From Candidatus Thorarchaeota archaeon (GTDB lineage: Archaea; Asgardarchaeota; Thorarchaeia; Thorarchaeales; Thorarchaeaceae): DNA of 64,000 bases. A program made the position numbers and the translations under genes. The notes under the pieces are model-generated. The model did not search any database and was not told where the DNA came from. It saw only the letters and a program-made list of their open reading frames with translations. Shown one piece after another: positions 7,261-63,128 of the stretch. The stretch spans positions 173,886-237,885 of the forward strand of contig JAWOEX010000010.1 of assembly GCA_046482545.1 (NCBI GenBank). The letters run 5' to 3'. The first letter of the stretch is position 1. Each line of letters begins with the position of its first letter.

Positions 7261-7438
7261 ATGACTCTAAGTGGTGACGAACGAACCAGATACTCGAGAA
7301 TGCTGCCACTGAGGCATTTTGATGAGAGCAAGATGGAGTCCATCAAAGAAACAAAGAGTTGCAGTGGCTGGCACTGGCGGTTTGGGATGCAACTTGCGCA
7401 GACTGCTTACTTCGTTCGGATTCGGACATATCAAGATA
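7261..7438 (+). pseudogene. ThiF/MoeB/UbaA (E1-like) 5' fragment, frameshifted and truncated by element B
   Basis: MTLSGDERTRYSRM..., then a frameshift near 7350-7356 to VAVAGTGGLG...FGFGHIKI (RYSR and GxGGLG motifs). Confidence 0.85.
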
Positions 7439-7875
7439 ACCCGTTTCTTACAGTTGAGTGAGTGGATCCAACTGAGGAAACTTCTGTGTTCCACCCTTCC
7501 CCTGCCAGCGTCACCGCCCCCAAGGTACCCGTAGGCCCTCGGGTCAGCAGGGGCTTTGTCCACGTTCACCGGAATAGGATTCCTCCCGCGGTCCTGGCTT
7601 CCTTCTCCTGTCGAACTCCGGTACATCACTCCCGGCGACAGCGAGTTCTTCCACAGTTCTTACCACGGCGTGGTCATGATCACCCACCTCAGCCTTGTCG
7701 CCGTAGCTGAGGAGATCCATCTGGACATGGTGAACAGCCGCGGACTCTCCAGGGTCTGATGGGACCCCTCGTTCGGAGAGTAAGGACTTCTGCTTAGAAG
7801 ACGACGTCTTCCTCACAGCCTTCGGGGCTGGGCGCTTCTCCCGTGGGGGAGTGGCTCACCGCCCTAGTCCTACTA
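7439..7875 (-). ncRNA. Putative TnpB omegaRNA scaffold (stand-alone copy B)
   Basis: Homologous to the region overlapping and downstream of the tnpB 3' end; TTTATTA box (7898-7904, minus strand) lies 23 nt upstream of the conserved agtaggac. Confidence 0.65.
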
Positions 7876-7997
7876 GACCGGACTCCCGTACTAGGCCTAA
7901 TAAACTCCCCTGCTTGAGAGAGAATCGTTACAGGAAATCTTACAGATATTTTACACTTTTCCACTCGGATTTTTTACGATTTTTGTAAAATTTACCC
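7439..7997 (-). mobile_element. Non-autonomous element B (left end plus omegaRNA/right end only)
   Basis: 7439-7870 closely aligns with 54640-55070 (3' end of tnpB and downstream); 7927-7997 matches the left-end hairpin at 62791-62859. Confidence 0.9.
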
Positions 7998-8007
7998 TTT
8001 CAAGACC

Positions 8008-8552
8008 TTTGTAAATCGTACAGAATCCTAAATAAATCAGCACAGTAGAGTGTAAGATTTCATCGAGCCCTTTTCGTGACCAAAAAGGAGTTTAGTAGAC
8101 AGACAACCGTACTGGATATCAGTAGGACCAGGCAAGTGGGCTAGCGCAGAAGCGCGAAGCACGCGGCTGAAAGATGTGAGGAAGTCCTGTGATTCTAAGC
8201 GGAAGTCCTTACTCTCCACAAAGAGAGCTTCATCGAACTCAGGAGGGTCCGCGGCTGTTCACCATGTCCAGATGGACCTTCTCATCTACGCTGACAAGGC
8301 TTATTCGGGTGATTGTGACCACGCCATGGTAAGAACTGTGGGAAACGTCGTTATCGCCGGAGTGACGACCCGGGATGACGACGGGAGGATGAAGCCAAGA
8401 CCGCAGGAGGAATCCCAATCCGATGAACGTGTGCAAAGCCTCTGCTTGCTCAAGGACTGAGAAGTATCTTGGGGCGGCGACCTTAGCAGGGGAAGGATGG
8501 AACACAGGAGTTTCCTCAGTTGGATTCACTCACTCAACTGTAAGAAACATGT
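8008..8552 (+). mobile_element. Non-autonomous element C, head-to-head with B
   Basis: 8011-8061 is the reverse complement of the left-end motif; 8120-8552 is homologous to the reverse complement of 54640-55070 and ends cactcaactgtaagaaacatgt|tatc. Confidence 0.9.
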
Positions 8553-8556
8553 TATC
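8121..8556 (+). ncRNA. Putative TnpB omegaRNA scaffold (stand-alone copy C)
   Basis: Same conserved block as B and E; TTTAGTA box at 8091-8097 lies 23 nt upstream of agtaggac. Confidence 0.6.
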
Positions 8557-8723
8557 CGGAGCTACTTCGAATCGTGACTGGAATTCAAGTGCGTGAAGCG
8601 GTACTGCTCGCTACATCTCGCAAGACCGAGCATATGGAGGTGCTGATGACAGTAGACTTGACTTCGCTAACTGTTGATAGGTTTGAAATTGCAAAGGATG
8701 CCAACTGCAAGATTTGCTCTTGA
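8553..8723 (+). pseudogene. ThiF/MoeB/UbaA 3' fragment
   Basis: YPELLRIVTGIQVREAVLL...FEIAKDANCKICS*: QxxEA helix and terminal CxxC of MoeB/ThiF. Confidence 0.8.
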
Positions 8724-8737
8724 TTAAAGATACAATC

Positions 8738-9769
8738 CTATGCTCCGAAGAAGAGTCTTCTGGCTCTCTTTCTCCGCTCATCTTCGTCTTCTTCACCTTG
8801 GGGCGGTGGTGGTGGTGGAGGTTCGGAGCGATTTTGCTTCTTAGAAGATTCGTTTTGGTCAACCTTGCCTTCTTCGTCATGGACTTCTCTCTCAACTACA
8901 CTTGTTGATTCATCTGATGCTTTCTCTTCAACTGAGGAGTCGTCCAATGGACTCCGGGTCTCTTCCTTTTCGGGGGGACTATCTGATTCCTTTTCGGAGG
9001 CTCCATATGGTGAAGCTACCCTAGGAGTCAATGCATCTTCATAGTCGTCCCAGCTAAAATCATCTTCCGTTTCTTCTTCTGATTCAGGTGCCATAGTATC
9101 TTCTGATGTTTCCATTGAGGAGGGGACTTGATCGGAAGATTCGATTTCAGTTTCGGCTTCCTCAGTGGGTTGCTCATATTCATCCTCCTCGGCAGTTGAT
9201 TTCATAGATTCTGGTTCAGCAAGGTGGAACTCCTTCGTGAAATCCTTGAAGGTTTCAGGCTCTGAAGGTTCTTCATCAGTGGATACGGACTTCTCGCCTT
9301 CTACGGGTTCAGCAACATCTGATTCTGAGACCGAAGCAGATTCTTGTGTTTCGGAATCTTCTGGGAACAAATCCATTTCTGTGTCTAATCCTTTCTCCTC
9401 ACTCACAACACTTGGTGCAACTGATTCTCCAGTTGGCATTTCGAAAGAGGGTTCTTCTAGCGATGCAGAGGGTGTTTCAGTCACGCTTTCATCGGTAGGA
9501 ACCTCGTCGCTGAAACTGGGCTCTTCAACCAACTCACTGGATGATTCTACTGGAAGACCTTCTTCATCATCACGAAAGTTAATACCCAAAGCATAGCTTA
9601 AGCATTCCTCGCAGCGTTTTGCAGCTGCAATGAGACCGTCATTGATGAAATCATCGAGACTTCTGGCTCGGTCAGGGTGGCGTTGAGACCACTTGAGAAA
9701 ACTGTCTACCATACGCAAAGCGTCTCGGACTCCAAGCCAATATGATTCGTCCTTTTTATGTGAAGTCAA
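8738..9769 (-). CDS. Acidic low-complexity protein with structured N-terminus, poly-Pro tract and basic C-terminal helix
   Basis: 343-aa ORF; E/S/D/P-rich middle; PPPPPPP then ERRKRARRLFFGA. Confidence 0.8.
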   Translation of the reverse strand: MTSHKKDESYWLGVRDALRMVDSFLKWSQRHPDRARSLDDFINDGLIAAAKRCEECLSYALGINFRDDEEGLPVESSSELVEEPSFSDEVPTDESVTETPSASLEEPSFEMPTGESVAPSVVSEEKGLDTEMDLFPEDSETQESASVSESDVAEPVEGEKSVSTDEEPSEPETFKDFTKEFHLAEPESMKSTAEEDEYEQPTEEAETEIESSDQVPSSMETSEDTMAPESEEETEDDFSWDDYEDALTPRVASPYGASEKESDSPPEKEETRSPLDDSSVEEKASDESTSVVEREVHDEEGKVDQNESSKKQNRSEPPPPPPPQGEEDEDERRKRARRLFFGA

Positions 9770-9828
9770 CTATTGCACCATCTCCACTTTAGACATGCTT
9801 ATGAAAAAAGCCTTTGTATCACTGCTTG

Positions 9829-10296: not shown

Positions 10297-10411
10297 TAAT
10301 CGGCATCCTCTTTCAAAAACTTCACTCACTTGGAAATAAGTCTTCTCAATGCACCTTTTGCATAAGCTAACGTTGATAAAGTCATCTTGTTGGGTTGAAG
10401 AGTGAGATTGA

Positions 10412-10765: not shown

Positions 10766-10819
10766 TCGTCAGGCTAAAAGAAGACAAAGAATTCACTAGG
10801 TCTTTCAGAAGAACGAGGT

Positions 10820-11194: not shown

Positions 11195-11220
11195 AAAGAG
11201 CGACTAGGAATCGATGAATT

Positions 11221-11685
11221 ATGCCGTACATAAGGGAAGTATCCAAAGATGACCTCGAAGCGATAAAGGAAATCGAGACATCCTGCTTTCCAGTCCCTTG
11301 GAACCCTGAGGTTTTCGATATCCTAGCACGATGGGAGGGGACAATTCCATTGAAAGGTGAGCGAATACTACACATGAAGGTCCTTGAAGACGACGGCAGA
11401 TTATGCGGCTATGTGGTGTGGGAAGAAAATAGCGAAGATTCTGAAGGACACCTCATGAATATCGCGATTGCCAATGATAGCCGGGGGCGGGGATTTGGAA
11501 AGAAGCTTCTGGAACATGTTCTCAAATCCCTGCGAGCTAGCGGTTCTACTGAATGCTGGCTTGAGGTAAGATCAGGAAATGAGAGCGCCAGATCCCTTTA
11601 TGAAAGCATGGGGATGAGGGCAAGTGAACGCATCCCCAATTATTACGACAACGAAGACGCCATAATATACCGAATTGATCTATGA
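11221..11685 (+). CDS. rimI: RimI/Ard1-like N-acetyltransferase
   Basis: HLMNIAI...RGRGFGKKL, LEVRxxNxxAxxLY, YYDNEDA. Confidence 0.88.
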   Translation: MPYIREVSKDDLEAIKEIETSCFPVPWNPEVFDILARWEGTIPLKGERILHMKVLEDDGRLCGYVVWEENSEDSEGHLMNIAIANDSRGRGFGKKLLEHVLKSLRASGSTECWLEVRSGNESARSLYESMGMRASERIPNYYDNEDAIIYRIDL

Positions 11686-14600
11686 CTCTTCGCGAATCCT
11701 GTTTTCTATAATACGTGGGCCTATGACATCATGGAAAAGCTGCAGGTACGCCTTATCCTGCGACACAAGAGCTATCGGAGGGCAGCTTTTGCGGGAACCA
11801 GCTAATAGTATCTCGCAGGAATCAATAGTCGCGAGCAAAGCTGGTGATCGCGTCCGCCAAATCCGCCAGCCTTCCATCTCCTCAAGTTCATGAGGTACAT
11901 CCGCAGATTCTGGTAAGACAAGGATGCGTCTTCCGGGTGCTTTCACCTTGCTCAGCACTTCGGAATCTAATGAAGCGGGATTATCAACCGACACAAGAAC
12001 AGACTCTTTTGCACGCCCAATCATGCCATGCAGGTAACCCTGAATCTCTTCATCACCGGAAACATACCAAGTCTTTTCGTTTGCTGGAACACTGAGCTTC
12101 TGGCCTGCTTCTGTAAGAGTTTCTAATCCATCTATTGCAGAGGATATCACATGGGTCATTCCCTCTATCGTCGTATCAAGGGATTGCCGCAATGAGTTGA
12201 CCTGCTTCTCTCGTTCAGTTTGCCAACGTTTCGACTCTTTCTCTATTGAACTGGTCAGAGCATTGACAGCCTCGTTTCTTGCTCGACGAATATTCGATTT
12301 CTTCTTGTTTGCAGCATTGTTGGCTTCAGTCACGCATTCAGTTATCTCGGTGTTAGTTTCAGCAATGTTAGACCTCACATCTTCCATCACACGATGATTC
12401 TCCTGACTCAGTTTTGTCTTGAGTTCAAGACCCAACGACTCAAATTTTCGTGATGCATACAGATTTGTCTCAATAAGACTCTCTAGCGCCTTATCAAATA
12501 CCACACCCGATTTCTTGCTGGTCTGTTCGGTAGTTTGGTCTAGCAAATCGCGGTATTCTTTTATTGCCCTGTTCTTGGACGCATTCATCTGATTTTTCTC
12601 TTCACCCAGTTTTGTAAGAACAGTATCACATTGGGAATTAGTCTTATTCACCAAGCTGGTAAAGGACTCATCCACAATATTGGAAAGTTTCTGTGGCAGG
12701 TCATCAACCGTATTTCTGCTTTCGTTCAGTTTTGTTGAGGTCGTTGCCTCAAACTCAGTAGCGTGAGATCTCAAACTCTCTTTAGTCTCTTTCAGATGTT
12801 TGGTTCCAAGAGTTTCCAACTGATCTGCATGCTCATCACCCATCTCAGAAAGGCTCTTCCCGATATCGATTGCGGTTTCGCCCAGCTGTTCTTGAGTGGA
12901 TTCAATTTCACCTGTAATATTCTCTTCAAGAGAGTTCAGAGATGATAACACCTTCGTAATTGAGGAGTCAATCTGAAGACCAGCGCCAGCTAATGCCGTT
13001 GATACTTCAGTCCTTCTTTGATTCATGCTGGAAAGAATTTCCTCTCCAAGTGCTCGCCTCTCTTTGAGTCCCTCCCTCTCTGCTTTTGCTAGAGATGATT
13101 CATAAGAGTCCATCCTCTCAGAAGATTTCTTTGTCATATCGGACGTAATTATATCCAGCTGCTTGCTCGCTTCTGTTAGGAGTCGTTGGTCTGAATCAGA
13201 TTGCTGGTTAATGGCGGTTGCAAGTAGATTCTGTACCCGTTTAGAGCTCCGCTCAATCTCACTTGCAGTTGCTTCTGAAAGGTTTGCAACACGTTCTTCC
13301 ACGTTGATGCCTGCCTGTTCAAGGGATTCACCGAACGTTCCAGAGAGAGTCTCTAATTCCTGATTGATTTGCACTATCGGTCCATCTCTCATCTCACGTA
13401 GAGACTGGACTGACTCGTCCATTGCGCTCTCGAGCTGCTGTACTGTCTCCTTGATATTCCGACTCATTTCTTGTTTTTTGCCCTGTGTGAACTCATCGAG
13501 CTTAGTTTGGATATCTGTAGGTAATTCTCGCACGAGATCGAGTCTCTGTCCAATTTCCGAAGAGTATTCTTGCTGCAGTTTCATAGAGGTCTCTTTGAGC
13601 CCAGTCATCTCACGCTTCAACGCAGTGTTGAACTCCGTGTGTGTTGATGACACAAAATCACGCGTCTCAATGACTTGACTGGTAACCAGTCCATTGAACG
13701 TTGTTTCTAGTCCTTCTGTAAGCGTGATGAATTGCTGTGTTATCTCGTCAAGCTGGCTGTGAAACTCATCCTTGATCCCCATCGCATGATTATCTATCCT
13801 AGAGATTTGGTCTTCAATGATAGATTCAATTTCACTCCGCGCCCTGCTTACATGCGAATTCATAGCTTGAACGGTCTCAGCCAGACGCTCATCCAGTTTT
13901 TGGTTTAGAATCTCGTACAGAACCTCGACTTCATCAACGTATTCTTGAGATGAGGTTGCAAATTGAGATGTAACCTCAGATATGTGTGTATGAAGATTGG
14001 ATTCAAAACGTTGAGCAGTAGTATTGATATCAGTCAAGATTGCATCATTCTTGTTAGATGCATTGGTTACAACGGTGCCGAAAGTGGAGGTTATTTCATT
14101 CTGCGTTTTCTCAGTAAGGGTTTTCAGTTCGTTTTCTCTCGTTACAAGGACTTCACCCACTTGGTTAGCAGTTTCTGAGAGGCGTGTATCTATGGCCTCG
14201 GTTGTCTCAGCAACCATTTCTTCCAAATCATCTTCAAGTTTGGCTCTGCCAGAATCCAGATTCTGACGACTTTCTTTCAATCGTTTCCGCAAGAATGATA
14301 GTAGCGTTGTCTTGGTTTCTTCAACGAATTCTGAGAAGTTAGTTTCAACAGCTGATGAAATCTCCTTCAAGTCTGTGTATTCTTCACCAACCACCGAATC
14401 GACTTTGTCCAGATGTCCTGAAATAGTAGTTTGAAGCGCATCAATGTAGTTCTTGTCGGCACTCTCCACTTTGTCAAGCTGTGCACGCATGGATCGGGAT
14501 GCTGAATCCATGTATGTGGCTACTTCCTCTCGCCAAGCTCCAAAAGCCTCATTCATAGCTCTGCTTTCACGTAGAGTAGATTGAATCTTGTCTCTCGCCA

Positions 14601-15579
14601 GTTGAGCATGCTCATGAGTCATAGAGCGGGTGTCTATGACCAGTTTCGACAAGGCTTCCTGTGCTTCGTCATGCGCTATGGAGATGTCTCGATCCATTTT
14701 GTCAACCGTGTCATTCAAATCAGCAGAGGCACGGTTTATCCTTTCTACTACTTCTTGAGAGAGTTGAGTAGTATCGTTCGTCAGTTGTTCGGATGTTTTC
14801 TTGCTGGCCTTGCGGATGATGTCAGTTGATTCCGATACAGCATCGGCAACAGCTGATTCCGCAATTTCCAGCAACCTGTCTGCATCTTCTCTGAACACCT
14901 TTACGGAATCTACTGCGGATGCTTTCCGTTCCTCAAGCTCTTGCTCCAATTCAGTCGATATACGTTCTACGTCTTGCTCTATTTCTTGTTGACCTTTGTC
15001 CAGCTCTGCGTGAAGTTGGCTCATATTGTCTCCGAGAGACTCCTCCATAGTCACGTCAATTTCCGACAAAGCAGACTCCATAGAATTGGAGAATTCCTCT
15101 AGAGAAGCACGCGCGATTTCAGAGACAGTCTCAGTTTGAGATTTTACTGCCTCGAGCATTTCATCCTCACATGAGCTCAAATCGCTTTCAATTCGCTTGC
15201 TGCTCTTCTCTGCTTGCTTAACAACTGAGCTAGCAGTCTCTGAAGTCGCTTCGATATCGGTATCAAGCGATTCGTAAGAAGATTCAGCAAAACCGTTGAC
15301 ATCAGTTACTAGAGTTCCAAGGCGCTCAGAGAATGTCAAACCAAGGGGAACTGGTCGATAGATTGGAACTACGCCGTCAATCTTGGTGACTAAACCTTTC
15401 TTCTGAAGGCGGTTTAAAGCTCTCTCCACCTTCGTTATTGTCTCTTCAGAGACAAGAGCAACAGCCCCAGCGGTCATATTGCCGCCTAGAAAAACTGGTA
15501 TTAGGACTTTGGCCTCTAGCTCTGTTACATCCAGATTAGCCCTTAATGCGGGTATTGTTTCTGTTATGGTATTACTCAA
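11680..15579 (-). CDS. 1299-aa protein: TrmB-like wHTH, ~1000-aa helical/coiled-coil rod, C-terminal TrmB/PLD-like domain
   Basis: N-terminal LDVTELEAKV...LNRLQKKGLV; apolipoprotein-like repeats; C-terminal TWYVSG..I...L..MI.RAKESV...IDSCEILL. Confidence 0.8.
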   Translation of the reverse strand: MSNTITETIPALRANLDVTELEAKVLIPVFLGGNMTAGAVALVSEETITKVERALNRLQKKGLVTKIDGVVPIYRPVPLGLTFSERLGTLVTDVNGFAESSYESLDTDIEATSETASSVVKQAEKSSKRIESDLSSCEDEMLEAVKSQTETVSEIARASLEEFSNSMESALSEIDVTMEESLGDNMSQLHAELDKGQQEIEQDVERISTELEQELEERKASAVDSVKVFREDADRLLEIAESAVADAVSESTDIIRKASKKTSEQLTNDTTQLSQEVVERINRASADLNDTVDKMDRDISIAHDEAQEALSKLVIDTRSMTHEHAQLARDKIQSTLRESRAMNEAFGAWREEVATYMDSASRSMRAQLDKVESADKNYIDALQTTISGHLDKVDSVVGEEYTDLKEISSAVETNFSEFVEETKTTLLSFLRKRLKESRQNLDSGRAKLEDDLEEMVAETTEAIDTRLSETANQVGEVLVTRENELKTLTEKTQNEITSTFGTVVTNASNKNDAILTDINTTAQRFESNLHTHISEVTSQFATSSQEYVDEVEVLYEILNQKLDERLAETVQAMNSHVSRARSEIESIIEDQISRIDNHAMGIKDEFHSQLDEITQQFITLTEGLETTFNGLVTSQVIETRDFVSSTHTEFNTALKREMTGLKETSMKLQQEYSSEIGQRLDLVRELPTDIQTKLDEFTQGKKQEMSRNIKETVQQLESAMDESVQSLREMRDGPIVQINQELETLSGTFGESLEQAGINVEERVANLSEATASEIERSSKRVQNLLATAINQQSDSDQRLLTEASKQLDIITSDMTKKSSERMDSYESSLAKAEREGLKERRALGEEILSSMNQRRTEVSTALAGAGLQIDSSITKVLSSLNSLEENITGEIESTQEQLGETAIDIGKSLSEMGDEHADQLETLGTKHLKETKESLRSHATEFEATTSTKLNESRNTVDDLPQKLSNIVDESFTSLVNKTNSQCDTVLTKLGEEKNQMNASKNRAIKEYRDLLDQTTEQTSKKSGVVFDKALESLIETNLYASRKFESLGLELKTKLSQENHRVMEDVRSNIAETNTEITECVTEANNAANKKKSNIRRARNEAVNALTSSIEKESKRWQTEREKQVNSLRQSLDTTIEGMTHVISSAIDGLETLTEAGQKLSVPANEKTWYVSGDEEIQGYLHGMIGRAKESVLVSVDNPASLDSEVLSKVKAPGRRILVLPESADVPHELEEMEGWRIWRTRSPALLATIDSCEILLAGSRKSCPPIALVSQDKAYLQLFHDVIGPRIIENRIREES

Positions 15580-15630
15580 ATTGCATCCCTCTGTTATACA
15601 ACGGATATGTTACAAGATTACTCTTTATCT

Positions 15631-16452: not shown

Positions 16453-16629
16453 AATGTGGTGCCACCGAAATGAAGCCGACCCAGTGTTATGCCAAGAAGT
16501 GTCATTTACAAGGGGATTGGTTCTCAGGAATCCAACATTAAACTATAAGAGATAAATCTATGGCCCTGAACGAGCCTTTTCAGCATCCAAAACTGGGAAC
16601 TCAATCAGCAGTTTCCCGTCTATCCAGAA

Positions 16630-17096
16630 GACAGCACTCGCTGGAGAGCATGGTTTATCAAATTCGATTATGGAGAAACACTGCTGGGATTGGATGATAC
16701 GCGGCTGAGCATCTATGATGTCGGCCACCTGATCGAGAGCAGGCAGCTCTATGATAGTGACACCAAGAAGTTGCATTCAATGTATGTCATCTTGAACAAG
16801 GTCAAGGACTTCTCTACCCAGGCTGACCTCTCGGAGTTCCCGCTGTTTGCAGAAAAACTCAGAAAGAGCACGGAGACCAAGCAACCCTCAAACAGCTGAC
16901 CGGGTGGTGGGCGTGAATGCCGGAGATCTGTTAAGCTCATGACACAACCTACAATCCCAACGTAGGTTGCTAGATTCCTGACATACGGGTAGGATATCAA
17001 CTTGGTGTATGCAGGATGGTCTATCTCCCACATGAGGTAACAGGAAATCTTACACTTCTATGCGCCGATTTATTTAGGATTCTGTAAGATTTCCAC
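16630..17096. mobile_element. Left-end-only remnant D, flanked by the 10-bp direct repeat CTATCCAGAA
   Basis: Homologous to ~62370-62859; ends in the left-end hairpin; repeat at 16620-16629 and 17097-17106; carries a gene 3' fragment (to 16899). Confidence 0.8.
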
Positions 17097-18365
17097 CTAT
17101 CCAGAAATATGAGTAAGCTTCTCTCGCCATTCCCTGATCTCGCTATTCAGCCGAGCGATGTCATTCTCATTAAGAGTGGCTGTAGGGGGATACGATTTGA
17201 GCTCATTGGCTCGTTTGCCCAGTTTAAAAAGAATCGGAGTGTGAGTGTCGATAATGGTGGTGAGTTGATCTCTCACAGATTCTATTGCCACAGCCATTTC
17301 GTTGGCCTCGACATCAGCATCTACCATATCGAGCAGGTATTGCATCAGCGAATCAAGATCCTCTGGCATATCACTCTTGGGTGCAGCAGTTGTCTCTTCT
17401 TCAGTCTCCTTTTCAGAAATGGCTCTCGGTTTCATCTCTTGTCGTGTAATCGAGGTGCCCAGTTTATCGGTTGTTTCTTCAACCAGAGTAATGGCATTAT
17501 CAACCTTCTCTAGGGTTTTATTGTATTTACGCTCAATATCATCCAGCTGTCTAACAATGATGCCGACAATTTCTTTTGTCTCAACAATAGAGGAATTCAG
17601 ATCATGAAAGCGATCCTCGAGGGCCGATAGGTCCGCTATGTAGGTTTCAATGCTGTCAATCTTCTTCTGAATTACGTCAGATTCACTAGAATCCTTAATC
17701 TTGTTCATTGTATTACCTAGACCGACAACTGAACCAAGAATATCCTCTATCTTCTGCCCGAAATCCTCCCTCCCGTCTTCAAGTCTTGAATCGATGGATT
17801 CCAGCTTGTCTACAACATCCTCATCACTGGTTAGTTCTGAGAGCTGGTCTTGCAGGTCGCCAAACTTCTTGTCGGACACATTCTTTGAAGAATCGATTTC
17901 ATCTTTGACATCTGTTAGCGAAAGCAGAATCTCATCAAGCTTCTTGAAAATGACTTCGGTCTCTTTCGATTCGTTCATTTCAGTAAGAAGCTCGTTCATC
18001 TTGCCAATTGTTTCATTTGTTTCATCAAGTGTGGAAAGAGAGGAAAGATCCCCCCTTATGTCATCCATCTTTGAATTCAGAGAGTCGTGATGTTTTTCGA
18101 AATAGTCATTTATCTCATCCAGCTTCTTATGAAATGTAATTTCTTGCGAATCTACCTTCTTGGAAATATCAGGAATCTGTTCTACTTCACTGACTTGTTT
18201 TTCTATAGCAATGAGCTGCTCACTGAAGGCTTCAATATCCTCCAGCTTGGGCGTGGAGACGGAAAGCTGATTAATCTCATCACGAAGAGCGGCAACTTCG
18301 CTAAGAAGTTTGTCGAGACTCTTTTCCATTTTCTTGACACTTTCTTTGTCCTCTTTGGCGGGCAA
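17097..18365 (-). CDS. Coiled-coil protein with C-terminal helical domain
   Basis: 422-aa ORF with heptad pattern, linker, and C-terminal ...EIREWREKL. Confidence 0.85.
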   Translation of the reverse strand: MPAKEDKESVKKMEKSLDKLLSEVAALRDEINQLSVSTPKLEDIEAFSEQLIAIEKQVSEVEQIPDISKKVDSQEITFHKKLDEINDYFEKHHDSLNSKMDDIRGDLSSLSTLDETNETIGKMNELLTEMNESKETEVIFKKLDEILLSLTDVKDEIDSSKNVSDKKFGDLQDQLSELTSDEDVVDKLESIDSRLEDGREDFGQKIEDILGSVVGLGNTMNKIKDSSESDVIQKKIDSIETYIADLSALEDRFHDLNSSIVETKEIVGIIVRQLDDIERKYNKTLEKVDNAITLVEETTDKLGTSITRQEMKPRAISEKETEEETTAAPKSDMPEDLDSLMQYLLDMVDADVEANEMAVAIESVRDQLTTIIDTHTPILFKLGKRANELKSYPPTATLNENDIARLNSEIREWREKLTHISG

Positions 18366-53653: not shown

Positions 53654-53903
53654 CTTCCTGGGTTGAATGAACCTCTGTTTTCTCCAGGAATAGATACAAG
53701 AAGCTGGTGATTCCAAACTGACGAACCTCTGATATTGAATCGATTAAGTGTAGCATTCACAATAGTGGGAGTGATTCTGCTCCTGTTAAAGCGACAATGC
53801 CGATTGTAGAATGGTTTTCAAAACAGTGGGGTATTCAAAATCCTCAGTTTCTGATTTTTTAAGAAACCATATGGTGGGAGAAAGTCCATTCTCTGGGGAG
53901 AAT

Positions 53904-54639
53904 TCAATCTATCATTTTTTCCATGATGCATCCAAGTAGCTCGAAGCCCATACTTCGACATAATTCCAGTTCGATATCATGTTCGGCATGCAACTGAAAA
54001 TATAGACTGGAGCAGTCTTTCTCAGCAGCCCAGTGCACTGCCTGCGATAGAAGCATCTGGCCCGCGCCACTAGGAGGCTCTTCACCAACCGCGAAGTCAT
54101 AGATTGCAGCAGTCTTCTTGTTGTGTTTGGCACGACCTACCCATACGAAACCAACAACACCCTCATCGGGGGACTCAAGCACGAATCGCTGCTGATTGCT
54201 ACCAAGACTGAAGCGCCGCCGCAGAAGCTCTTCGTATCGTTTGACAATATCCGCATCAGAAGCATCTGTACTGAACAACACGAGCCTTCTGAACCTCCGT
54301 AACCCAAGCATCTCTACTCGCTTTTCATCCTGAGGTTCTTGCTCACGAACAATAAGATCAGGTGATTTTTGTAACCTCACATGTTTCGGTTCAATGACAA
54401 GCGGATAGGCACGATACGCGTAGCCCTGAGATTCATACAATTGCTGCGCGGGAAAGTTATGTTCATGTACGAAAAGTCCAATGTTCCGGCCAAGTGTCCT
54501 CGCATATTCTTCTGCTCTTGCGATTAGCTTTCTCCCAAGGCCCTTTCGACGGTACTCCTTGTCAACAATGATGTCGTATATCCACAGAGCGCGTTCGATA
54601 TCCCAGATTTCCCGTTCTGTTCGGAGTGCAATCCAGATA
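53904..54639 (-). pseudogene. 3' part of a tandem GNAT acetyltransferase split by element E
   Basis: IWIA|LRTER...IVDKEYRRKGLGRKL; joins in frame to 62872-63128 (993 nt in total). Confidence 0.9.
54628..54639. repeat. 12-bp direct repeat GCAATCCAGATA (partner at 62860-62871)
   Basis: Exact match at both junctions of element E. Confidence 0.92.
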
Positions 54640-55075
54640 ACCCATTTCTTACAGTTGAGTGAGTGAACCCAACCGAGGAAACTCCTGTGTTCCACCCTTT
54701 CCTTGCCCAGTGTCACCACAATACCAAGGCGCTACCCCCGGCCAAGCAAGGACTTTGACCGCCATCATCAGGACACGGTCCCTCCTGCGGTCTCGGCTTC
54801 TGTCTCCTGCCCTGACCCGGATACATCACATCCGGGGGCAGCGAGGTCTTCCACAGCTTTTGCCACGGCGGGGTTATTATCGCTCTGCCCAGTCTCGTCA
54901 CCGAAACCAGACAGGTCCAATTGGACACAGCGAACAGCCGCGGACTCTCCGGGGTCTGATGAGGACCCCTTTTTGGAGAGTGAGGACTTCTGCTTAGAAG
55001 AACGAGTCTTCCTCACAGCCTTCGGGGCTGAACCGTTCCCCCGTTCGGGGGTGGCCCACCGCCCTAGTCCAGTCT
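54636..55075 (-). ncRNA. Putative omegaRNA of element E, overlapping the tnpB 3' end
   Basis: Position typical of TnpB omegaRNA/reRNA; this is the block retained in B and C. Confidence 0.7.
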
Positions 55076-56447
55076 CATCCTTAAGTGAAGGAATGAGCGT
55101 AAGTAAACGACGTGCGATGTTGAGGGAGCCATTCCGGTCGGCGTTGGTGCGGAAGCCGCACGTGTGGCATACGAACAAAGCCTGTTTCGGCCGTACTCCC
55201 TTGTTGCCACACTTCCAGCACATTATCGAGGTCCAGTTTTCAGGCACCGCATGGAATCGGCTATCCTTGCCTTCCACTTCCCACCCGAGCTGTTCGAGTC
55301 CGTTTTTAAGCCCCTCGGTAATACGCGAGAAGCTCCACCTGTGCACCATACCCCTGAACTTGGAACCTTTGTAGTTGCCACGCCTAGCGGCATTCCGGAT
55401 ACCCTTGAGCCTCCCGATACCAACATAGAGCTGATACTGTTGGCTTAGCTTTTCGACATACGACAAGAGATCGCTGACGAGGGCCCGATCATAGGTCTTA
55501 GCCGCATCCGCCCGCTTCGTTTTGAGCTCCTTGAGCTTGCTGATCAACCCGTCACAGTCGTTCCCATTGCTCCTCCTGATATCGAGGTCGTGCTGGAGGT
55601 CCGCTATCCGCTCCTCATATTGGAGGAACACTTGGTGCTTCTCTTCCTGCCTGAAGTACCGGGTGCTTGATATTCTCTTCTCAGTAACGAGGGTCGTGCA
55701 TGCTGCACAATTGATACCCAGGTCAATACCAAGGACAGCAGGCGGTAACTCAGCATCCTTTATTTTCTCAATAGCGGTAAGGCGTATCGCAATAGCAGCC
55801 CACCACTTCCCATGCCGGTCGGTGAATACCTGTACAGCTTTAGGCTTCCCTCGATCCAGTTCCTCAAGGTGATAGGGTGAGGTTTTCAGGGGGATGCGGA
55901 GCCTGTCATGGATCCTGCGGCCTTCTGGTACAGAGTCCAGTGAATCACGGATGTCGAGCCACAGCCGCGCGATCGTCGTTTCGTGCTCAACAAGCTTCGC
56001 CCTGTAGGGAATGTACATCATCCGGGGAATCCGCCTTTCGCTGTTGGTCTCTGCAGGCCGGGAGGCCTTTCTCCACTTCTTAACGCGCAGGGCCAGGTAG
56101 CTCTCGTAGTTGGCTATAGCGATACGCCGACACTCTTGAAGTTCATTGGCTGATATCCGGGGAAACCGTGCTTTGAGGTCATGGTCAACTTCCAGTCTCT
56201 GTTCCTCACCATGAGCAACCCGCAAGGCAGTCATGGTCATCACATCGAGCTTGTTCTCATCGATGCGCTTCTTCGCCTTGCCTCTAAGCAGGTCTTCCTC
56301 GTTTTCTTCTATGATACCGAAGAATGCATGAATGACCCGTGAATCCCTTCCCGTGATCTGTTCCAATCGCTGACGACTGGAGCTGGTCATCTCTTTCCAT
56401 GCTATGGGAATCTTGACCGTAATCACAGGGGTGTTGGAGTCTGTCAT
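54768..56447 (-). CDS. tnpB: TnpB-family RNA-guided nuclease, 559 aa, rearranged RuvC-II
   Basis: LGIDLG (RuvC-I); VGIGRL where E is expected; VPENWTSIMCWKC; CHTC; NADRNGSLNIA (RuvC-III). Confidence 0.92.
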   Translation of the reverse strand: MTDSNTPVITVKIPIAWKEMTSSSRQRLEQITGRDSRVIHAFFGIIEENEEDLLRGKAKKRIDENKLDVMTMTALRVAHGEEQRLEVDHDLKARFPRISANELQECRRIAIANYESYLALRVKKWRKASRPAETNSERRIPRMMYIPYRAKLVEHETTIARLWLDIRDSLDSVPEGRRIHDRLRIPLKTSPYHLEELDRGKPKAVQVFTDRHGKWWAAIAIRLTAIEKIKDAELPPAVLGIDLGINCAACTTLVTEKRISSTRYFRQEEKHQVFLQYEERIADLQHDLDIRRSNGNDCDGLISKLKELKTKRADAAKTYDRALVSDLLSYVEKLSQQYQLYVGIGRLKGIRNAARRGNYKGSKFRGMVHRWSFSRITEGLKNGLEQLGWEVEGKDSRFHAVPENWTSIMCWKCGNKGVRPKQALFVCHTCGFRTNADRNGSLNIARRLLTLIPSLKDETGLGRWATPERGNGSAPKAVRKTRSSKQKSSLSKKGSSSDPGESAAVRCVQLDLSGFGDETGQSDNNPAVAKAVEDLAAPGCDVSGSGQETEAETAGGTVS

Positions 56448-56702
56448 GGGTATCGCCTATTTAAACCTCTAACCTGTTTCGGGGGTAGTTGAGTTCACTC
56501 CTCATGTAGTTTTGACCCGAGGTAATGAACTCATATTCTGATACAGCATAGTCATATTTAAACCTATTAAGAAGAAATATTAATTCAATATTTGATACTC
56601 TTCTAAGGTCATTAGAAACTCCCCAGTTTCATTTCTATACTTAACTATAATAAATAACAACCCGCAAAAAATATAAGAAAATAAACCCCCAGCGTACCAC
56701 CA
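56448..56702. promoter_or_regulatory. AT-rich divergent promoter region between tnpB and the 1410-aa gene
   Basis: Several TTTAAA/TATAA tracts between the head-to-head starts. Confidence 0.55.
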
Positions 56703-59700
56703 TTGTCAAGAAGTCGTGGACGGCCTTCAAAGGTCATGCCTAAACACCCAAACAAGGTGATCTCACTCGCGGTTCGCAGAGGCCTTTCTGCCGCTGTTGA
56801 ATTGCAGCGGAATATCCAGAATAAAAAAACTGAGAACCTCTATCGAAGTTCGCGTGACAGTTTGGCAGCCGCAAAGGATGTCTATTATCAGACCGTTGAA
56901 AGTGGTGAAGGCGACCACAAGTATATCATCAAGGCAGAGTCGACCATCAGGAAGAACCTCCTGAAGATGATCATGGAAAACACCGCCGCTTATGGGAACA
57001 CCGAAGTGAAACGTGTCAGGAACCCTCACGCGAAAGTTGGGCCGCTAAATCAGCGGTTCAATGTCCTGGGTGCCCAGCTCCGCAATTTTGGTATGACCCG
57101 GTACCTCTTCCCAGACCCCAAGTTGTTCCGTTATGAAACTCGGATAGTCGGAGAAAAAAGGAAGGAATACCGTGTAGCAGGATACCCTCCGGATTCCTAC
57201 GGTCCTCGCACTCCCCTGGTCCATCCGAATCTTCCGTCCCTTGACCTGGTCGACTCAATCAGGCACCACCTCGACTATTTCGCAGGCTACGCCTTCATCT
57301 ACGATATACCTCCAAGGGAGGCCGGCCGCTACTGGAACCTCTACCAGCTACGAGCCCGGCCCTATCTGGATTATTTATACTCCGAGTGCCTTATCGGAAC
57401 GAACGGGTTCAGAGGAGGAACCGATAGTATACTCAGGGAACTGAAAGAAGACGTTGAGTATCACTATGAAACCCGTCAAGGAGCACCAAGAACGGTCACA
57501 GAGTCCAAGCCAGAGAGGAAACCGACCCTGTCCACGGATATCTGTCGCAATTGGATTGAGGAGGCATACTCTAAGGGAATCACTCATGAGTCGATTGAAG
57601 AGTTTGAGTTGGTAGTCGAAGATGAGTCGCTGTTCCGGGAGGGCGATATGGCTAGGCTCTATTCTCGCCTAGAAGAGAAAGCCAGTAAGACTGGCTCACG
57701 GGTTCATGAATTTGTGTTCAGCCAATTAACCAGCCCCTGGTCGCTCCGTGACGCGATTACACGGGGTGACTCGTACGGAAGCAGCGACGGGTATCTCGTG
57801 TGTTTTGAGACCCCTCTCGATACAGAGAAAGGCAAAGGAAAAGCGGATGTGATCCTCTTGCGGCGGGTAGTATCTGAGCAGGGAAATCAAGCCCATTACC
57901 GACCGGTTATGGTGCTGGATTTGAAAACAAAACTGGGGCCCACTATAACACTCGGGATCAAAGACATCCACTCCGAAGTGGACTCAAAACGCACATTCGT
58001 GGAGCGAACCTTCCCGCCTGAGTATGCGTTCAGAAAGCAAGAGGAAGAGAAAAAGAGATACAAACGGGTCATAGACTACCGCTTCGGTCGGAGGCCGCTG
58101 GATGACGAGGAATGGGAAGCATTCATTCAGGCCATGCCGGACGAAGACACACAAAAACAGATAGACGCCTATACAGCTGCAGTTTCGGATATATACAAGG
58201 AATTGACCGACTGCGGGGAGAAGCCCGCCATCTTCACAGGTACAATGCTTGTTGACGTGACCGAAGACATAAGACTGCTTCGAGACATGCTCCGCGGGTT
58301 GATCATCAATGCCTACGAAGAAGTCGCAAAGGGGCCTCTGAGGGAGGGCAGGGTCGTGCTTGAACCAAAGGTCCGTGGCCACAAGCCCCGTGTCGCTCTG
58401 GTCATGAACGAACAAGAACAGCCGGTGAAAGCTACCGAAACGCCAATACAACCTTCATGGCGACCCCCATACAATCCATTAACACTGGCACAATCTCACG
58501 GAAGGCGATTCCTCCTCTTTACATCAGCAGCATCACCAACCTCTTCCGGTATTTCAGCGGCGTGGCATGCGAAGTACTACCATGGGCTACAGGAAATCAA
58601 GCAGATGACTGAAGAACACGAGTACGATGATATCGTCTGGATAGACCTGGCCAGCGATTTCATAGAACCGGAGCTTCGTGAAGCTCGGTTGTTGCTCCGA
58701 CCCTACTCAAACGATGAGGAAGACACTCGGCGGGCCCACCGGCAGGATGTCCAGGAACTTGTTGATAGGATTTCGTTCAGGGGGCTTTTTGACGAAGTTG
58801 ATTCGTTCATCTTCCGCAATGGTGCCGCTGAAGCTGTAGGAAAACGATTGGAATCGCTCCCGCAAGAAGACTGCTTGATTGTAGTCTCCGGGATGGATAC
58901 AATCCGATACGCAACACCTGAGCCTTATCGTTGGCAATTGAATCCCCTCCTCAGAATCATACTTTCACAGCTCCCAACTTCGGACTCAGCCACCATCTTC
59001 TGGTTTGACTCACCTGTACCAGCAGCAGAAATGTCCACCCCCTATTCAAAACGGTCACTGCTCCCGTTCTATGACTCGTCTCCCCTGCGGGGTGTTGTCA
59101 GCCAGATCATCTGGAACCTGCCTGTGGCGCCGCGGGATGAAGTCCTTCCCGGGGAGTGGTTCTTGCCTTATCCCACAAAAACGCCGATGTACGACGATAT
59201 TAGAGTCATAGTCAGGCAAAAGAAAACAGGCTTCTCGATAGAATCGACCCTCGTTCCCCTGCTTATGGAGTGGTCGAAAAGATTCGATAACAGGGGCATG
59301 GGCAAAGTCTCCCATAGAAATAGCTTTGCTGAAGTAGTACCCGATGCCTCGGTCAGGGCCCGGATGGAAACCCTTGCGCTTTCTCTGATCCCCTGGCTCG
59401 TCGACCTGCATCCGACCCAGAAGATGGACGCCAAGCACGGATTCCAGTGTATTCGTCAAGAGTACGAACAAATGCTTTCAGAATACTCGATTCCCCAGGA
59501 CATAATCACCTTTGACCGGTCGGTACTGGCGACTCCTCTTGGCAGTGCACCTTCTCTCCTTAAACGCGTGCGAATCCGGCCTGACGGTGCTGGAGGGGGA
59601 AAGGCCTTTCAACCGTTGTATGTCGGTGTCATCAATTATCCCCGGATATACCATGAATCACAGAAACTGAAAACCAAACCTTGGCGGCTCCAGCAGAAAC

Positions 59701-60935
59701 CATCCCCAGCACAAGACCAGGTAGACCTTGTCGATATTCGCTTCGTGATGACCCTTTCATCATATGGAGAAGAGTATGAGTGGCGTGCTGTCCTGGACCC
59801 GAGTACGACAGCGGGCATCGCATTCGGGTTGTTTCCGACTGGTCAAACCAAGGAGGGCATTGAATGGGGCCTCCAGCGACTGGATTTGGTTCAGCAAGCC
59901 GCAAAACGATTGCATCGCTTCAATGACGTAAAGATATACATCCTCAGAAGGAAAAGGAACCCGAATTCGGATGCAGAGAAGAGCCCCGGGTGGTGGATGT
60001 GGAGGCAGACTGATGGACCATCGGCCTGGACATTTGTCGGTACGTGTGACTATGTCCTGCGTCGGAGTTCAGCTGACATCGCTCTGCAAGGTTTTGGCAT
60101 CAATCCAAGGGATCCCCCGGGGGGAGTTTCGGTCCCAGATATGCCGTTCCCTTCGGGTTTCGAAACTGGTCTGCGGAGCGCTATTCGCGACCTGTCGGAG
60201 AATCTTGGGAGGGTACAAGCGGTGAAGGTGCAGCTGCGTAAGTATGGTGAACGTTGTGCGGTCAAGTTCATAGACAGTGAAAGCGAGGAATCCCTTCACA
60301 CACTCCTACTCAACAATACAGTTGATGTCCTGAGGTTGCTCAAGTGGCCATGGACAGCGGGACGGCCACTGCGGGTGGGGAACCTGCACCTGACATGGAA
60401 CACGCTCCACGATTATTCCCGGATAGAACCAGACATCGACTTTGGAGAAGAGTATAGATTCCTAGAAAGTTACATGGTGAGCACCTCAAGGGGTTTGAGA
60501 CCGTCGCTCTCTCCCCTCATCGATGCTGCTGTGGAAGACTTACAACCAGAGCAAATCACCATCTATCACAATGAGGTGTTATGTCCCCTTACCAAAGACC
60601 CGAGGCTAGACCATGATGCCTGTTGGGCTGTGGAGCTGTCGCCAAGCAGCTGGCAGCTCTTGGGTGGCAAGAACACTGCCATTCACGAAGGATTGACAGA
60701 TACGCAGGTGAGAGAACTCATCGATACCCTAGAAGGGGCACTGGAAGGACAGCGAATCGCACTGACATTTGACCCTGGTAAAACCGATGTTGACAGACTC
60801 GTCTTCAGCGAAAGCGAAGTCATGCGAGAATTATCGGCAAAGCACAGGGGGATATCTATGACAAAGCACCATCCTGGTCATACTGTCCGCATCAAGATCA
60901 TGCGAGAGCGGTATGGGATTGAGGGAGATGAATGA
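56703..60935 (+). CDS. 1410-aa protein: AT-hook, Cas4/RecB-like PD-(D/E)XK nuclease, degenerate RecA-like domain, unknown C-terminus
   Basis: SRGRPS; GSRVHE...FETPL...GKADVI...LDLKT...QIDAY; LLFTSAASPTSSGIS...IVWID...LIVVSGMD. Confidence 0.8.
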   Translation: MSRSRGRPSKVMPKHPNKVISLAVRRGLSAAVELQRNIQNKKTENLYRSSRDSLAAAKDVYYQTVESGEGDHKYIIKAESTIRKNLLKMIMENTAAYGNTEVKRVRNPHAKVGPLNQRFNVLGAQLRNFGMTRYLFPDPKLFRYETRIVGEKRKEYRVAGYPPDSYGPRTPLVHPNLPSLDLVDSIRHHLDYFAGYAFIYDIPPREAGRYWNLYQLRARPYLDYLYSECLIGTNGFRGGTDSILRELKEDVEYHYETRQGAPRTVTESKPERKPTLSTDICRNWIEEAYSKGITHESIEEFELVVEDESLFREGDMARLYSRLEEKASKTGSRVHEFVFSQLTSPWSLRDAITRGDSYGSSDGYLVCFETPLDTEKGKGKADVILLRRVVSEQGNQAHYRPVMVLDLKTKLGPTITLGIKDIHSEVDSKRTFVERTFPPEYAFRKQEEEKKRYKRVIDYRFGRRPLDDEEWEAFIQAMPDEDTQKQIDAYTAAVSDIYKELTDCGEKPAIFTGTMLVDVTEDIRLLRDMLRGLIINAYEEVAKGPLREGRVVLEPKVRGHKPRVALVMNEQEQPVKATETPIQPSWRPPYNPLTLAQSHGRRFLLFTSAASPTSSGISAAWHAKYYHGLQEIKQMTEEHEYDDIVWIDLASDFIEPELREARLLLRPYSNDEEDTRRAHRQDVQELVDRISFRGLFDEVDSFIFRNGAAEAVGKRLESLPQEDCLIVVSGMDTIRYATPEPYRWQLNPLLRIILSQLPTSDSATIFWFDSPVPAAEMSTPYSKRSLLPFYDSSPLRGVVSQIIWNLPVAPRDEVLPGEWFLPYPTKTPMYDDIRVIVRQKKTGFSIESTLVPLLMEWSKRFDNRGMGKVSHRNSFAEVVPDASVRARMETLALSLIPWLVDLHPTQKMDAKHGFQCIRQEYEQMLSEYSIPQDIITFDRSVLATPLGSAPSLLKRVRIRPDGAGGGKAFQPLYVGVINYPRIYHESQKLKTKPWRLQQKPSPAQDQVDLVDIRFVMTLSSYGEEYEWRAVLDPSTTAGIAFGLFPTGQTKEGIEWGLQRLDLVQQAAKRLHRFNDVKIYILRRKRNPNSDAEKSPGWWMWRQTDGPSAWTFVGTCDYVLRRSSADIALQGFGINPRDPPGGVSVPDMPFPSGFETGLRSAIRDLSENLGRVQAVKVQLRKYGERCAVKFIDSESEESLHTLLLNNTVDVLRLLKWPWTAGRPLRVGNLHLTWNTLHDYSRIEPDIDFGEEYRFLESYMVSTSRGLRPSLSPLIDAAVEDLQPEQITIYHNEVLCPLTKDPRLDHDACWAVELSPSSWQLLGGKNTAIHEGLTDTQVRELIDTLEGALEGQRIALTFDPGKTDVDRLVFSESEVMRELSAKHRGISMTKHHPGHTVRIKIMRERYGIEGDE

Positions 60936-60937
60936 GG

Positions 60938-61558
60938 TCACTTTCCAGAGCGTTGCCCCCTGATGATTTCGGTCGCCCCGAACCTATGCGCGTGCCGTTC
61001 TTCCCCCTCTTTCTCAAACTGGGTGAGTCCCCAGTACATCGTAGAGACCATGAGCACTTTCTGATCATTCAGAGGATCTGCAGAGTATCCGAATGTGATA
61101 TCTGGACTCTTCTCTATTCCCCCTGAGAGAGCTGCAGGTAATGATATCGTTGCCTTTATCGCAGTGACGGACGGGTCTCCTGGGGGCTGTTTGCATATGT
61201 AGCCCCAGAACCGTGGGTACAGTCCGATTGGTCCCTGAATCCTGTGGATGGCAGTGGGTACGAGGAGCAAGGAGCAGTCAACCAAGTCGTCGCTCCAGGT
61301 CAGCTCCTCGTACTGTGAATCAGTATCGAGGAACATAATCTCGTCCATACACTCGTAGACGAACATCTGCCAGAGCGCCTGTTCTTCCCCTAGATCTTCT
61401 ACTTCGTCACAGTCTTCGTACATTTCGGGATACCAGTCAAGATCGACATCGATCGCCTTGCCAGTCATGACTTTGAGTACGTACGGGCTGTCCCCGTCGG
61501 ACCCCCTTGGACCCATGAACTCGCTGAGATCGTCTGAGCCTGTATCGTCGCTCATCAC
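60938..61558 (-). CDS. Acidic hypothetical cargo protein
   Basis: 206-aa ORF with GGAG upstream, convergent on the giant gene. Confidence 0.7.
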   Translation of the reverse strand: MMSDDTGSDDLSEFMGPRGSDGDSPYVLKVMTGKAIDVDLDWYPEMYEDCDEVEDLGEEQALWQMFVYECMDEIMFLDTDSQYEELTWSDDLVDCSLLLVPTAIHRIQGPIGLYPRFWGYICKQPPGDPSVTAIKATISLPAALSGGIEKSPDITFGYSADPLNDQKVLMVSTMYWGLTQFEKEGEERHAHRFGATEIIRGQRSGK

Positions 61559-62290
61559 ACATTCTCTCCCATAGAAGAAACTCGTGCCGGGTCGTGAGCT
61601 GAAATTGCGTTGGTATGATATTGAATTCCCAAGTCGTTGAGTCTATATTCAGCCCGGGAACGTAGACGATTTGATGCTATGCTCCCGCTTCCCTGATACT
61701 GGTGAGGCTTTCGGTTTCCATGTCGTTTCGTAATCGCTTGAGTAGTTCCTTTATTTGGTTCTTTCAGCATAGGTAACCTGTTCATAGGACATACCCTCTG
61801 ATAGTATAGCTACTAGAAACTGGCTGGCATCAATCTTTCGGTTTTCATACCCGGGGTGTATGAGGGTTTTTGAGAACCCATCTGAGCGGTCATACTATTT
61901 TTTACATATTCATTTCACCTTAAAACTTCTAGATTTTACTAATCAGACCTATAAATGCCCAGATGAAAAGACCTTTGCAGTAGTTTCCCGGTCTCCACGG
62001 TTTTTTTAGGCGCCATGCTTGTCATTATGATAGTACAAAGCCATATTCCACTGAGAAATCTGCAATCCGCATGTGTGCATGGAACCCGGGAAAGTCACTC
62101 CGCAGGGATAGGCTGAAATTGCACCCTTGAAGGTGTCCAGCTCAGCTTGGGTATCGCTGATAAGAACGTTCTATCAAAGCTTGGTGGGTTGTGACCTTGA
62201 AGGACTAGAAGAACCACTTCCTGAAAATATCACTCTCAACGTTGCAATGCACATATTCTCTTGAGCTTGGAGTCTGGTTACTATGGTGGA

Positions 62291-62360
62291 GTTAAGAGAA
62301 AATCATACAAGCATTGCACATCTGGAACTGTTGATTTTTTGAGGATTTTGTAAAATCCAT
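62291..62360. repeat. Internal degenerate second copy of the left end
   Basis: gttaagagaaaatcataca...gattttttgaggattttgtaaaatcc versus ggtaacaggaaatcttaca...gatttatttaggattttgtaaaattcc. Confidence 0.7.
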
Positions 62361-62790
62361 TGTGTTCCAAGAGACAAGACTCGCTGCAGAGTATGGTTTC
62401 TTGAACCTAATTGTGGAGAAATACTGCTGGGACTGGATGATACGCGGCTGAGCATCTACGGTGACGGCCACCTGATCGAGAACTAGCAGCCCTATGAATG
62501 TGACACCAAGAAATTACATTCGACGTACATCATCTTGAACAGGGTCAAGGACTTTTCTACTTGCGCTGACCTCTCGGAGTTCACGCTGTTTGCAGAGAAG
62601 CTCAAAGAGAACAAGGAATAGAAGAAGACGAAACAGACCTTGAGCAGCTGGCGGGGGAGGCAGGTGTTAAGGCTGTAGATTTGTTACGCTCATGACACAG
62701 TCTATACTCTCAATATGGGTGGCTGGATTCCTGCCATACGGGTAGGATACCGACTTGGTGTATGCAAGATGGTCTATCTCCCACACGAGG

Positions 62791-62859
62791 TAACAGGAAA
62801 TCTTACAGAAATCTTACACTTCTATGTGCCGATTTATTTAGGATTTTGTAAAATTCCGA
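62791..62859. repeat. Left-end hairpin with GAAATCTTACA repeats
   Basis: ggaaatcttacagaaatcttaca...ggattttgtaaaattcc: two direct copies and one inverted copy. Confidence 0.85.
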
Positions 62860-63128
62860 GCAATCCAGATATGACCGGCATAGGTTCCATCCTCATCTTC
62901 AGCAATGAAAATGCGACAGTCATCACGCTCCAAGTCATAAGAGTCCACAACTTCATCCTTGAATATCTGGAATATCTCTTCCTCTGACCTGTCAGGATAT
63001 TTTTCCTTCAACTCGATATAGTGCCTATCATTAGTTGATCTAGCAGTTTCAAAGGACATGCGATAGAAGTTCTGCATATCTTCCTCATCTTTTCGTCGGC
63101 GGATATTGAATTGCATTATGGACGCCAC
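62860..63128 (-). pseudogene. 5' part of the split GNAT gene
   Basis: MASIMQFNIRR...IFIAEDEDGTYAGHIWIA, then runs into element sequence and stops. Confidence 0.9.

Follow-up and report, generated by a model that had tools for sequence, protein, structure and literature searches.

A matched six-base-pair TCNNGA core at the ends of an Asgard-archaeal aCas1-TnpB transposon family and its gene-less miniatures

In a 64,000-nucleotide stretch of the genome of Candidatus Thorarchaeota archaeon (GCA_046482545.1, contig JAWOEX010000010.1, forward strand 173,886 to 237,885; hereafter the window), a set of recurring junction words are the ends of an aCas1-TnpB transposon family of Asgard archaea and of its gene-less miniatures. 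The term aCas1 reportedly goes back to Makarova and colleagues in 2020. Repeat finding and reading of the letters identified four related elements in the window: the 8.2-kb element E, the miniatures B and C, and a derivative, D. At both junctions of the family lies a palindromic hexamer, TCNNGA, which is identical at the two ends of most copies and whose two central bases follow the lineage of the right end. We see an even chance that this hexamer is the crossover core of the transposon, used in a symmetric recombination that depends on core identity. The source genome comprises 3.05 Mb in 45 contigs and is 98.9% complete, and the protein homologues of the window come from sources named as Thorarchaeota or Lokiarchaeota.

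Conserved sequences at the element junctions

A BLAST search of the genome with the ends of E recovered 54 left ends that reach the terminus and 38 right ends. The genome holds 25 two-ended copies, and nine further pairs came from two genomes of the same genus; after removal of two doubtful pairs, 32 pairs were analysed. Most copies are gene-less and ~560 bp long, with a left end of 440 nt fused to ~100 nt of right end.

In the logo of the 54 left ends, only T-C-N-N-G-A is conserved outside the element. TCNNGA stands in register in 33 of 54 left ends and in 31 of 38 right ends. On the left, the invariant terminus TAAC(C/A)YG comes next after the core (its first base is T in 54/54 copies and its second base A in 51/54), and then the box TTTCTTACAG. 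The right end runs in the order terminal inverted box TGTAAGATT, spacer of 7-8 nt, TCNNGA and unconserved flank. A distance of 9 bp separates the left core from the box, whose general form is (A/T)TCTTACAG; an inverted box stands 9-10 bp from the right core, and one or two extra direct copies at the right end form a hairpin of ~50 nt. Joining of the two ends would give a palindromic arrangement of box - 9/10 bp - TCNNGA - 9 bp - box.

The original prediction, made from the letters of the window, had listed six junction 10-mers, and all six are where it placed them (TATCAAGATA at 7429, TATCCGGAGC at 8553, TATCCAGAAA at 17098, AATCCAGATA at both 54630 and 62862, and TTTCAAGACC at 7998). The TCTTACA(G) boxes that it described are also real, and lie in inverted orientation 9-10 bp off the insertion site at both ends. 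TCTTACA is enriched in the window (19 observed versus 7.8 expected; 0 of 100 shuffles reach 19), and 9 of the 19 occurrences are in element ends (7446, 7938, 8051, 8539, 17048, 17083, 54647, 62801 and 62812). TATCNNGATA is not enriched in the window, with 3 observed versus 1.06 expected and at least 3 in 11 of 100 shuffles.

The shared target TATC-NN-GATA that had been proposed did not hold. Genome-wide junction logos (54 left, 38 right) do have a palindromic consensus, but it is the 6-bp TCNNGA and nothing more. Left position -8 is T in 29/54 copies and position -7 is A in just 10/54; TATC occupies positions -8 to -5 in 5/54 left ends, and the whole 10-mer is found in 3/54. Of 38 right cores, that of E alone has TA directly behind it. 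By these logos, "GATA" joins the GA of the core to the TA with which the element begins, and "TATC" is the TC of the core preceded by chance letters. What is left of the sequence-selective, dimeric integration envisaged earlier is a selective palindromic site between inverted boxes, a layout that fits a two-fold symmetric enzyme complex, with the giant protein encoded by E as putative box binder; the site sequence then proposed has to be given up.

The core is matched between ends and follows the right-end lineage

The left hexamer equals the right hexamer in 22 of 32 pairs, whereas 10,000 shuffles average 5.0 such pairs and never exceed 12. Because the match does not extend past these 6 bp in 14 of the 22 matched pairs, the repeat unit is 6 bp. 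Longer matches between left flank and right end, of 10-12 nt, occur in E, D and the copies C18 and C9_140391. Their excess is weak (3 of 22 matched pairs versus 5 of 138 cross-comparisons).

When right ends have 7-nt spacers that differ by no more than one base, the core is common to both copies in 20 of 25 pairs, and the outer flanks are different. The other right-end pairs have a common core in 56 of 437 cases; none of 10,000 permutations attains the value of the sister pairs. In detail, tctaac/tctaat spacers pair with TCTGGA five times, tgccta/tgcctt spacers pair with TCTTGA in three species, and taccct spacers pair with TCAAGA three times. The central bases thus follow the right-end lineage, which arbitrary duplication of the target does not predict. 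A duplication of ~14 bp is ruled out, both by the spacers common to sister copies and by the 14 matched pairs that do not extend past 6 bp.

Deletion of 54640-62871 restores a 331-codon GNAT frame that is split by E. Across the junction (…AGHIWIALRTE…), the alignment of the reconstructed protein with four homologues from four other genera is free of gaps, and this protein-level alignment shows that the empty site holds one core. Paralogous empty sites in this genome were not found besides the nesting of B and C (see below). Nor was an orthologous empty site found in the same-genus genomes, which lack the GNAT gene and whose flanks, at 65% identity, have diverged too far.

The matched pairs also bear on the suggestion that TATC doubles as the target-adjacent motif (TAM) of TnpB and leaves an 8-nt seed at the filled left junction, which the sequences do not support. 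The tnpB strand reads GTTA directly followed by TCNNGA at every filled junction, and TATC is rare in empty sites (1 of 38 reconstructed). Since TATC occurs at every filled site, beside a flank that matches the guide, filled and empty sites would be indistinguishable and, on this sequence argument, it could not be a TAM that spares the donor. The "8-nt seed" is peculiar to copy E, where the match is 12 nt long.

Elements of the window

The features of the four elements are as follows (cores have no strand).

54632-54637: left core of E, TCCAGA, on the target side; same sequence as the right core at 62864-62869
54638-62863, plus strand: element E, 8.2 kb, from the TAAC terminus through the right spacer CCGAGCAA
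54645-54654, plus strand: left box of E, TTTCTTACAG, 7 nt (TAACCCA) inward of the terminus; invariant in at least 50 of 54 copies
54638-55080, minus strand: structured RNA region on the tnpB strand, an omegaRNA-like scaffold, containing GTTCACTCA
54660-54668, minus strand: GTTCACTCA, as the reverse complement of these positions; motif named in PMC10691335
54768-56447, minus strand: tnpB, 559 amino acids
56703-60935, plus strand: giant protein gene, 1410 amino acids
60938-61558, minus strand: acidic open reading frame (ORF), 206 amino acids, no family match, single copy in the genome
62292-62372, plus strand: internal right-end-like sequence of E, followed by the degenerate core TCCAAGA (62366-62372)
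62797-62855, plus strand: right-end hairpin of E, with boxes at 62801 and 62812 (plus strand)
62847-62855: degenerate terminal inverted box of E, TGTAAAATT, within the right-end hairpin
62864-62869: right core of E, TCCAGA, after the 8-nt spacer 62856-62863
7431-7436: left core of B, TCAAGA
7437-7999, plus strand: miniature copy B, 563 bp
8000-8005: core TCAAGA/TCTTGA, right core of B and, on the opposite strand, right core of C
8006-8554, minus strand: miniature copy C, inverted
8555-8560: left core of C, TCCGGA on either strand, unlike the right core of C
16623-17105, plus strand: D, derived from the right end; begins with the internal TCCAGA (16623-16628) and ends with the right core (17100-17105)
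17083-17091: terminal box of D
17092-17099: spacer of D

Copy B is inserted, inverted, in the terminal core of C, so that the hexamer at 8000-8005 serves both, and the left core of B has the same sequence as this hexamer. The left edge of D (16600-16640) corresponds to TATCCAGAAGAC, a conserved internal sequence of full-length copies on contig 28 (C28:141110-141235 and C28:70950-71080). As its left boundary is internal sequence of full-length copies, D is a deletion derivative and not an independent insertion module; it looks as if a deletion had joined a left core to an internal, core-like TCCAGA.

The 440 nt of the left end, read on the tnpB strand, have a conserved predicted fold of 95 pairs, 20 of which show compensatory changes among 13 copies. 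The left box is partly paired in this predicted fold, and a variable hairpin beside it has compensatory stems, for example CAGTTG/CAACTG versus CAGTTC/GAACTG. This 440-nt RNA scaffold is retained whole even in the miniatures.

Several further observations concern these elements and their surroundings. A conserved 250-nt block of the right end (16623-16880; 62366-62620) forms an open frame of ~80 codons in D that a stop interrupts in E; its product may be a small protein or an RNA. A full-length relative in a same-genus genome (G001:C64:50300-59500), 88% identical, sits in a tRNA gene. Its left flank is the 3′ half of a tRNA on the opposite strand, the last 1 kb of E is missing, and there follows a tRNA bearing TCCAGA in the anticodon arm region. 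Elsewhere in the window, 11680-15579 (minus strand) encodes a 1299-amino-acid protein with an N-terminal TrmB-type helix-turn-helix and long apolipoprotein-like helical repeats, and coiled-coil ORFs adjoin it (17097-18365).

Proteins encoded by the family

The giant protein (1410 amino acids) gave no Pfam or PDB sequence match. In its AlphaFold model (predicted local distance difference test, pLDDT, 75.6), residues 4-240 have the fold of the Cas1 catalytic domain and match ~20 Cas1 structures with Z of 9.4-13.3 (best match Z 13.3, root-mean-square deviation 4.5, 183 residues aligned). Cas1 fills the top 20 rows of the structure comparison, the next unrelated fold has Z of ~6, and the best Foldseek matches are likewise Cas1. 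Residues 262-571 match Cas4 and other PD-(D/E)xK nucleases with Z of 4-6.4. The conserved residues are E79, E92, E101, H189, D382 and K408, together with acidic residues at positions 206 and 406. The C-terminal half (~800 amino acids) gave no convincing fold, with a best Z of 5.7 and a model pLDDT of 66. Weak RNase H-like rows (Z 3.3-3.9) were noted at residues ~1172-1260, and an invariant motif H-x4-C-P...H-x2-C-W, possibly zinc-binding, at ~1289-1307. Leads from the protein atlas, to clusters of restriction-endonuclease-like proteins, were weak (scores 0.75-0.77) and were set aside.

The giant gene and tnpB form a divergent pair at four loci of the genome, which holds several diverged giant genes. 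Of 24 genomes of one Thorarchaeota family, 17 carry several copies of the giant gene, and in our sample the giant family was not found beyond this family. Many giant homologues are on metagenome contigs of 6.1-6.8 kb, the size that a minimal element of tnpB and giant gene, or an excised form, would have.

The tnpB product matches the zinc-ribbon domain PF07282 (Cas12f1-like_TNB) of Pfam at 4e-11 and TnpB structures at 1.6e-10. In all 14 copies examined, G, A or S stands in place of the RuvC-II glutamate, with RuvC-I D and RuvC-III NADRN kept. Replacement of the RuvC-II glutamate is a known type of rearrangement in TnpB, described as probably active.

Other recombination enzymes were looked for. 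The serine recombinase model PF00239 had 0 matches in this genome and three relatives (G001-G003); in a distant branch of the giant family serine recombinases do adjoin, but the ends are different. For a tyrosine recombinase there was no Pfam match, and neither half of the giant protein gave a fold match, the C-terminal half being modelled at low confidence. E encodes no Y1 (HUH) TnpA, and the only Y1 gene of the genome (C24:6161-6457) is unlinked, with no family boxes nearby. The match of this Y1 gene covers positions 1-98 of the 121 of the profile and lies in a 250-codon frame (C24:6122-6871), so that it may be fused or truncated. Apart from the TnpB domain, the three ORFs of E have no Pfam match, and so include no family B DNA polymerase. 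With its Cas1 and Cas4-like folds, the giant protein is the sole candidate encoded in the element for the recombining enzyme.

How the elements may move

If TCNNGA is the crossover core, the element would move by symmetric, conservative exchange at this core, and integration would prefer targets whose core is the same as that of the element. TC and GA would be read by protein, and the core would play the part of an att core or of a sticky overlap of 6 nt, unlike an arbitrary duplication made by gap filling. The enzyme, on weaker grounds, would be the giant Cas1/Cas4-like protein, and TnpB with the long scaffold RNA may serve retention or targeting. The position of B within the terminal core of C speaks for core exchange, as does the left edge of D, which is what a core-by-core deletion would give.

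Several points tell against exchange at the core. Sister copies are related, so that the pair counts compared above (20/25 versus 56/437) are non-independent. The ttcgtta spacer occurs with TCCTGA in C16 and with TCATGA in C25, each matched left and right. Left and right cores deviate from TC..GA at about equal frequency, so that a target origin of the left core only is not established. The copies are old (76-95% identical), their cores are consequently blurred by mutation, and the right core may be either borne by the element or duplicated. At the nucleotide level, searches of this genome, the same-genus genomes, and metagenome and genome contigs turned up no empty allele; the metagenome and genome contigs also gave no excised circle or head-to-tail junction pattern, and this genome no tandem junction. 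The Cas1 likeness is at the level of the fold only, with negative results from the Pfam Cas1 model, from a PDB profile search and from hhalign of the giant protein against six Asgard Cas1. Finally, known Cas1 enzymes work by 3′-OH attack and make long duplications, and do not carry out conservative exchange.

A more specific form of core exchange, which we consider unlikely, has a Cas1-fold/Cas4-like enzyme that integrates conservatively by core identity and so gives the element a heritable, reprogrammable address. The 6-nt overlaps on the leaving or entering element would then have to pair with the target, and the two central bases of TCNNGA would be the address. In an alternative version guided by omegaRNA, the RNA would be read across the joined ends, with core plus spacer as the insertion guide.

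The main rival, a possible one to which we nevertheless give clearly less weight than to core exchange, is a plain 6-bp target-site duplication. Here a Cas1-type or other transposase would make 6-bp staggered cuts at preferred TCNNGA sites, the gaps would be filled, and the lineage-specific central bases would reflect preferences of divergent cognate giant proteins (28-34% identical). A length fixed at 6 bp and a palindromic consensus suited to a symmetric cut agree with this, the genome does hold several diverged giant genes, and the ttcgtta spacer with its different, internally matched cores in C16 and C25 is as expected. Sister copies at unrelated loci, however, have common cores far above chance, and miniatures without an autonomous partner of the same hairpin type in this genome still hold lineage-specific cores. 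We know of no protein preference that tracks a non-coding end sequence in this way.

Both remaining routes are less likely than plain duplication. Single-strand "peel and paste" of the IS200/IS605 kind, on the plus strand of the window, would involve an element-borne right core, cuts 3′ of TCNNGA at both ends and insertion 3′ of TCNNGA in the target; the subterminal hairpins would be what is recognised. There are hairpins beside both ends, the left one with compensatory changes; the tacaaag lineage combines a constant right core with varying left cores; and the element encodes TnpB. We still regard this route as improbable, given that the element has no Y1/HUH transposase and the single one of the genome lacks these ends, that a palindromic target is unexpected under single-strand recognition, and that tnpB is oriented opposite to the canonical IS605 layout. 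Least probable of all, in our view, are RNA-guided events in which TnpB and omegaRNA cut or mark sites, so that homing or guided insertion would have left the core behind as a remnant of TAM or seed. Retention of the whole RNA scaffold in miniatures and the 10-12 nt identities of E, C18, C9_140391 and D are in its favour. Against it, the 6 bp are all that 14 of the 22 matched pairs have in common, extended matches are no commoner than in cross-comparisons (3/22 versus 5/138), no internal guide or other internal sequence matches spacer plus core, and a TAM consisting of the core or of TATC would occur at every filled junction too.

Relation to known systems

Elements of the aCas1-TnpB kind (groups Cas1H-Asgard-1 and -2) are so far a computational prediction only (Altae-Tran et al., 2023; PMC10691335). 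As in the Cas1H-Asgard loci, TnpB in E is beside a giant protein with a Cas1 fold (a likeness at fold level), the host is an Asgard archaeon (Thorarchaeota), repeats flank the element, and GTTCACTCA is downstream of tnpB. The gene pair is of this published kind, to which the present analysis adds mechanistic detail on ends, core and miniatures. That account (PMC10691335) gives no ends, target site or miniatures, and our literature search found no description of ends, target or mini-copies for aCas1-TnpB elements; the termini, the boxes and the 6-bp core with its inheritance are defined here. The published "hypervariable region" (PMC10691335) corresponds to the variable hairpin described here, which is no obvious guide.

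How aCas1-TnpB elements move is now a question that can be tested at the bench, with exact termini, a 563-bp mini-substrate (copy B), candidate boxes and a 6-bp core. To our knowledge, nobody has shown that the Cas1 relative acts as a transposase or how such an element lands in DNA. Exchange at the core makes a genetic prediction, that changing the two central core bases changes the target. If true, a core serving as a heritable address would be a simple means of steering a Cas1-type integrase, and the Cas1 family would have a new chemistry or targeting logic, in an Asgard lineage near the TnpB-Fanzor transition.

With casposons the family shares a candidate Cas1-fold integrase and inverted sequences near the ends. 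Casposon target duplications are 14-15 bp long, whereas the repeat here is 6 bp; there is also no polymerase B, and the family has instead TnpB, a Cas4-like fusion and a C-terminal region of 800 amino acids. Elements of the IS481 type use DDE transposases and make a 6-bp duplication at NCTAGN that one copy does not inherit from another. The 6-bp repeat and palindromic target are alike in both, but the core described here is inherited between copies. Aloposons, which integrate at tRNA genes and encode proteins of 3000-6000 amino acids (PMC8813620), were considered and are of a different kind. A serine recombinase, as in IS607, was not found in this genome or three relatives, and a tyrosine recombinase fold, as in Crypton-like elements, was not detected in the giant protein, whose C-terminal half has a low-confidence model. 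What the family has in common with IS607, the att cores of serine and tyrosine recombinases and Cryptons is a short core, seen on either side of the element and singly where the site is empty, a proposed preference for targets with the same central bases as the element, and ends that would be palindromic when joined.

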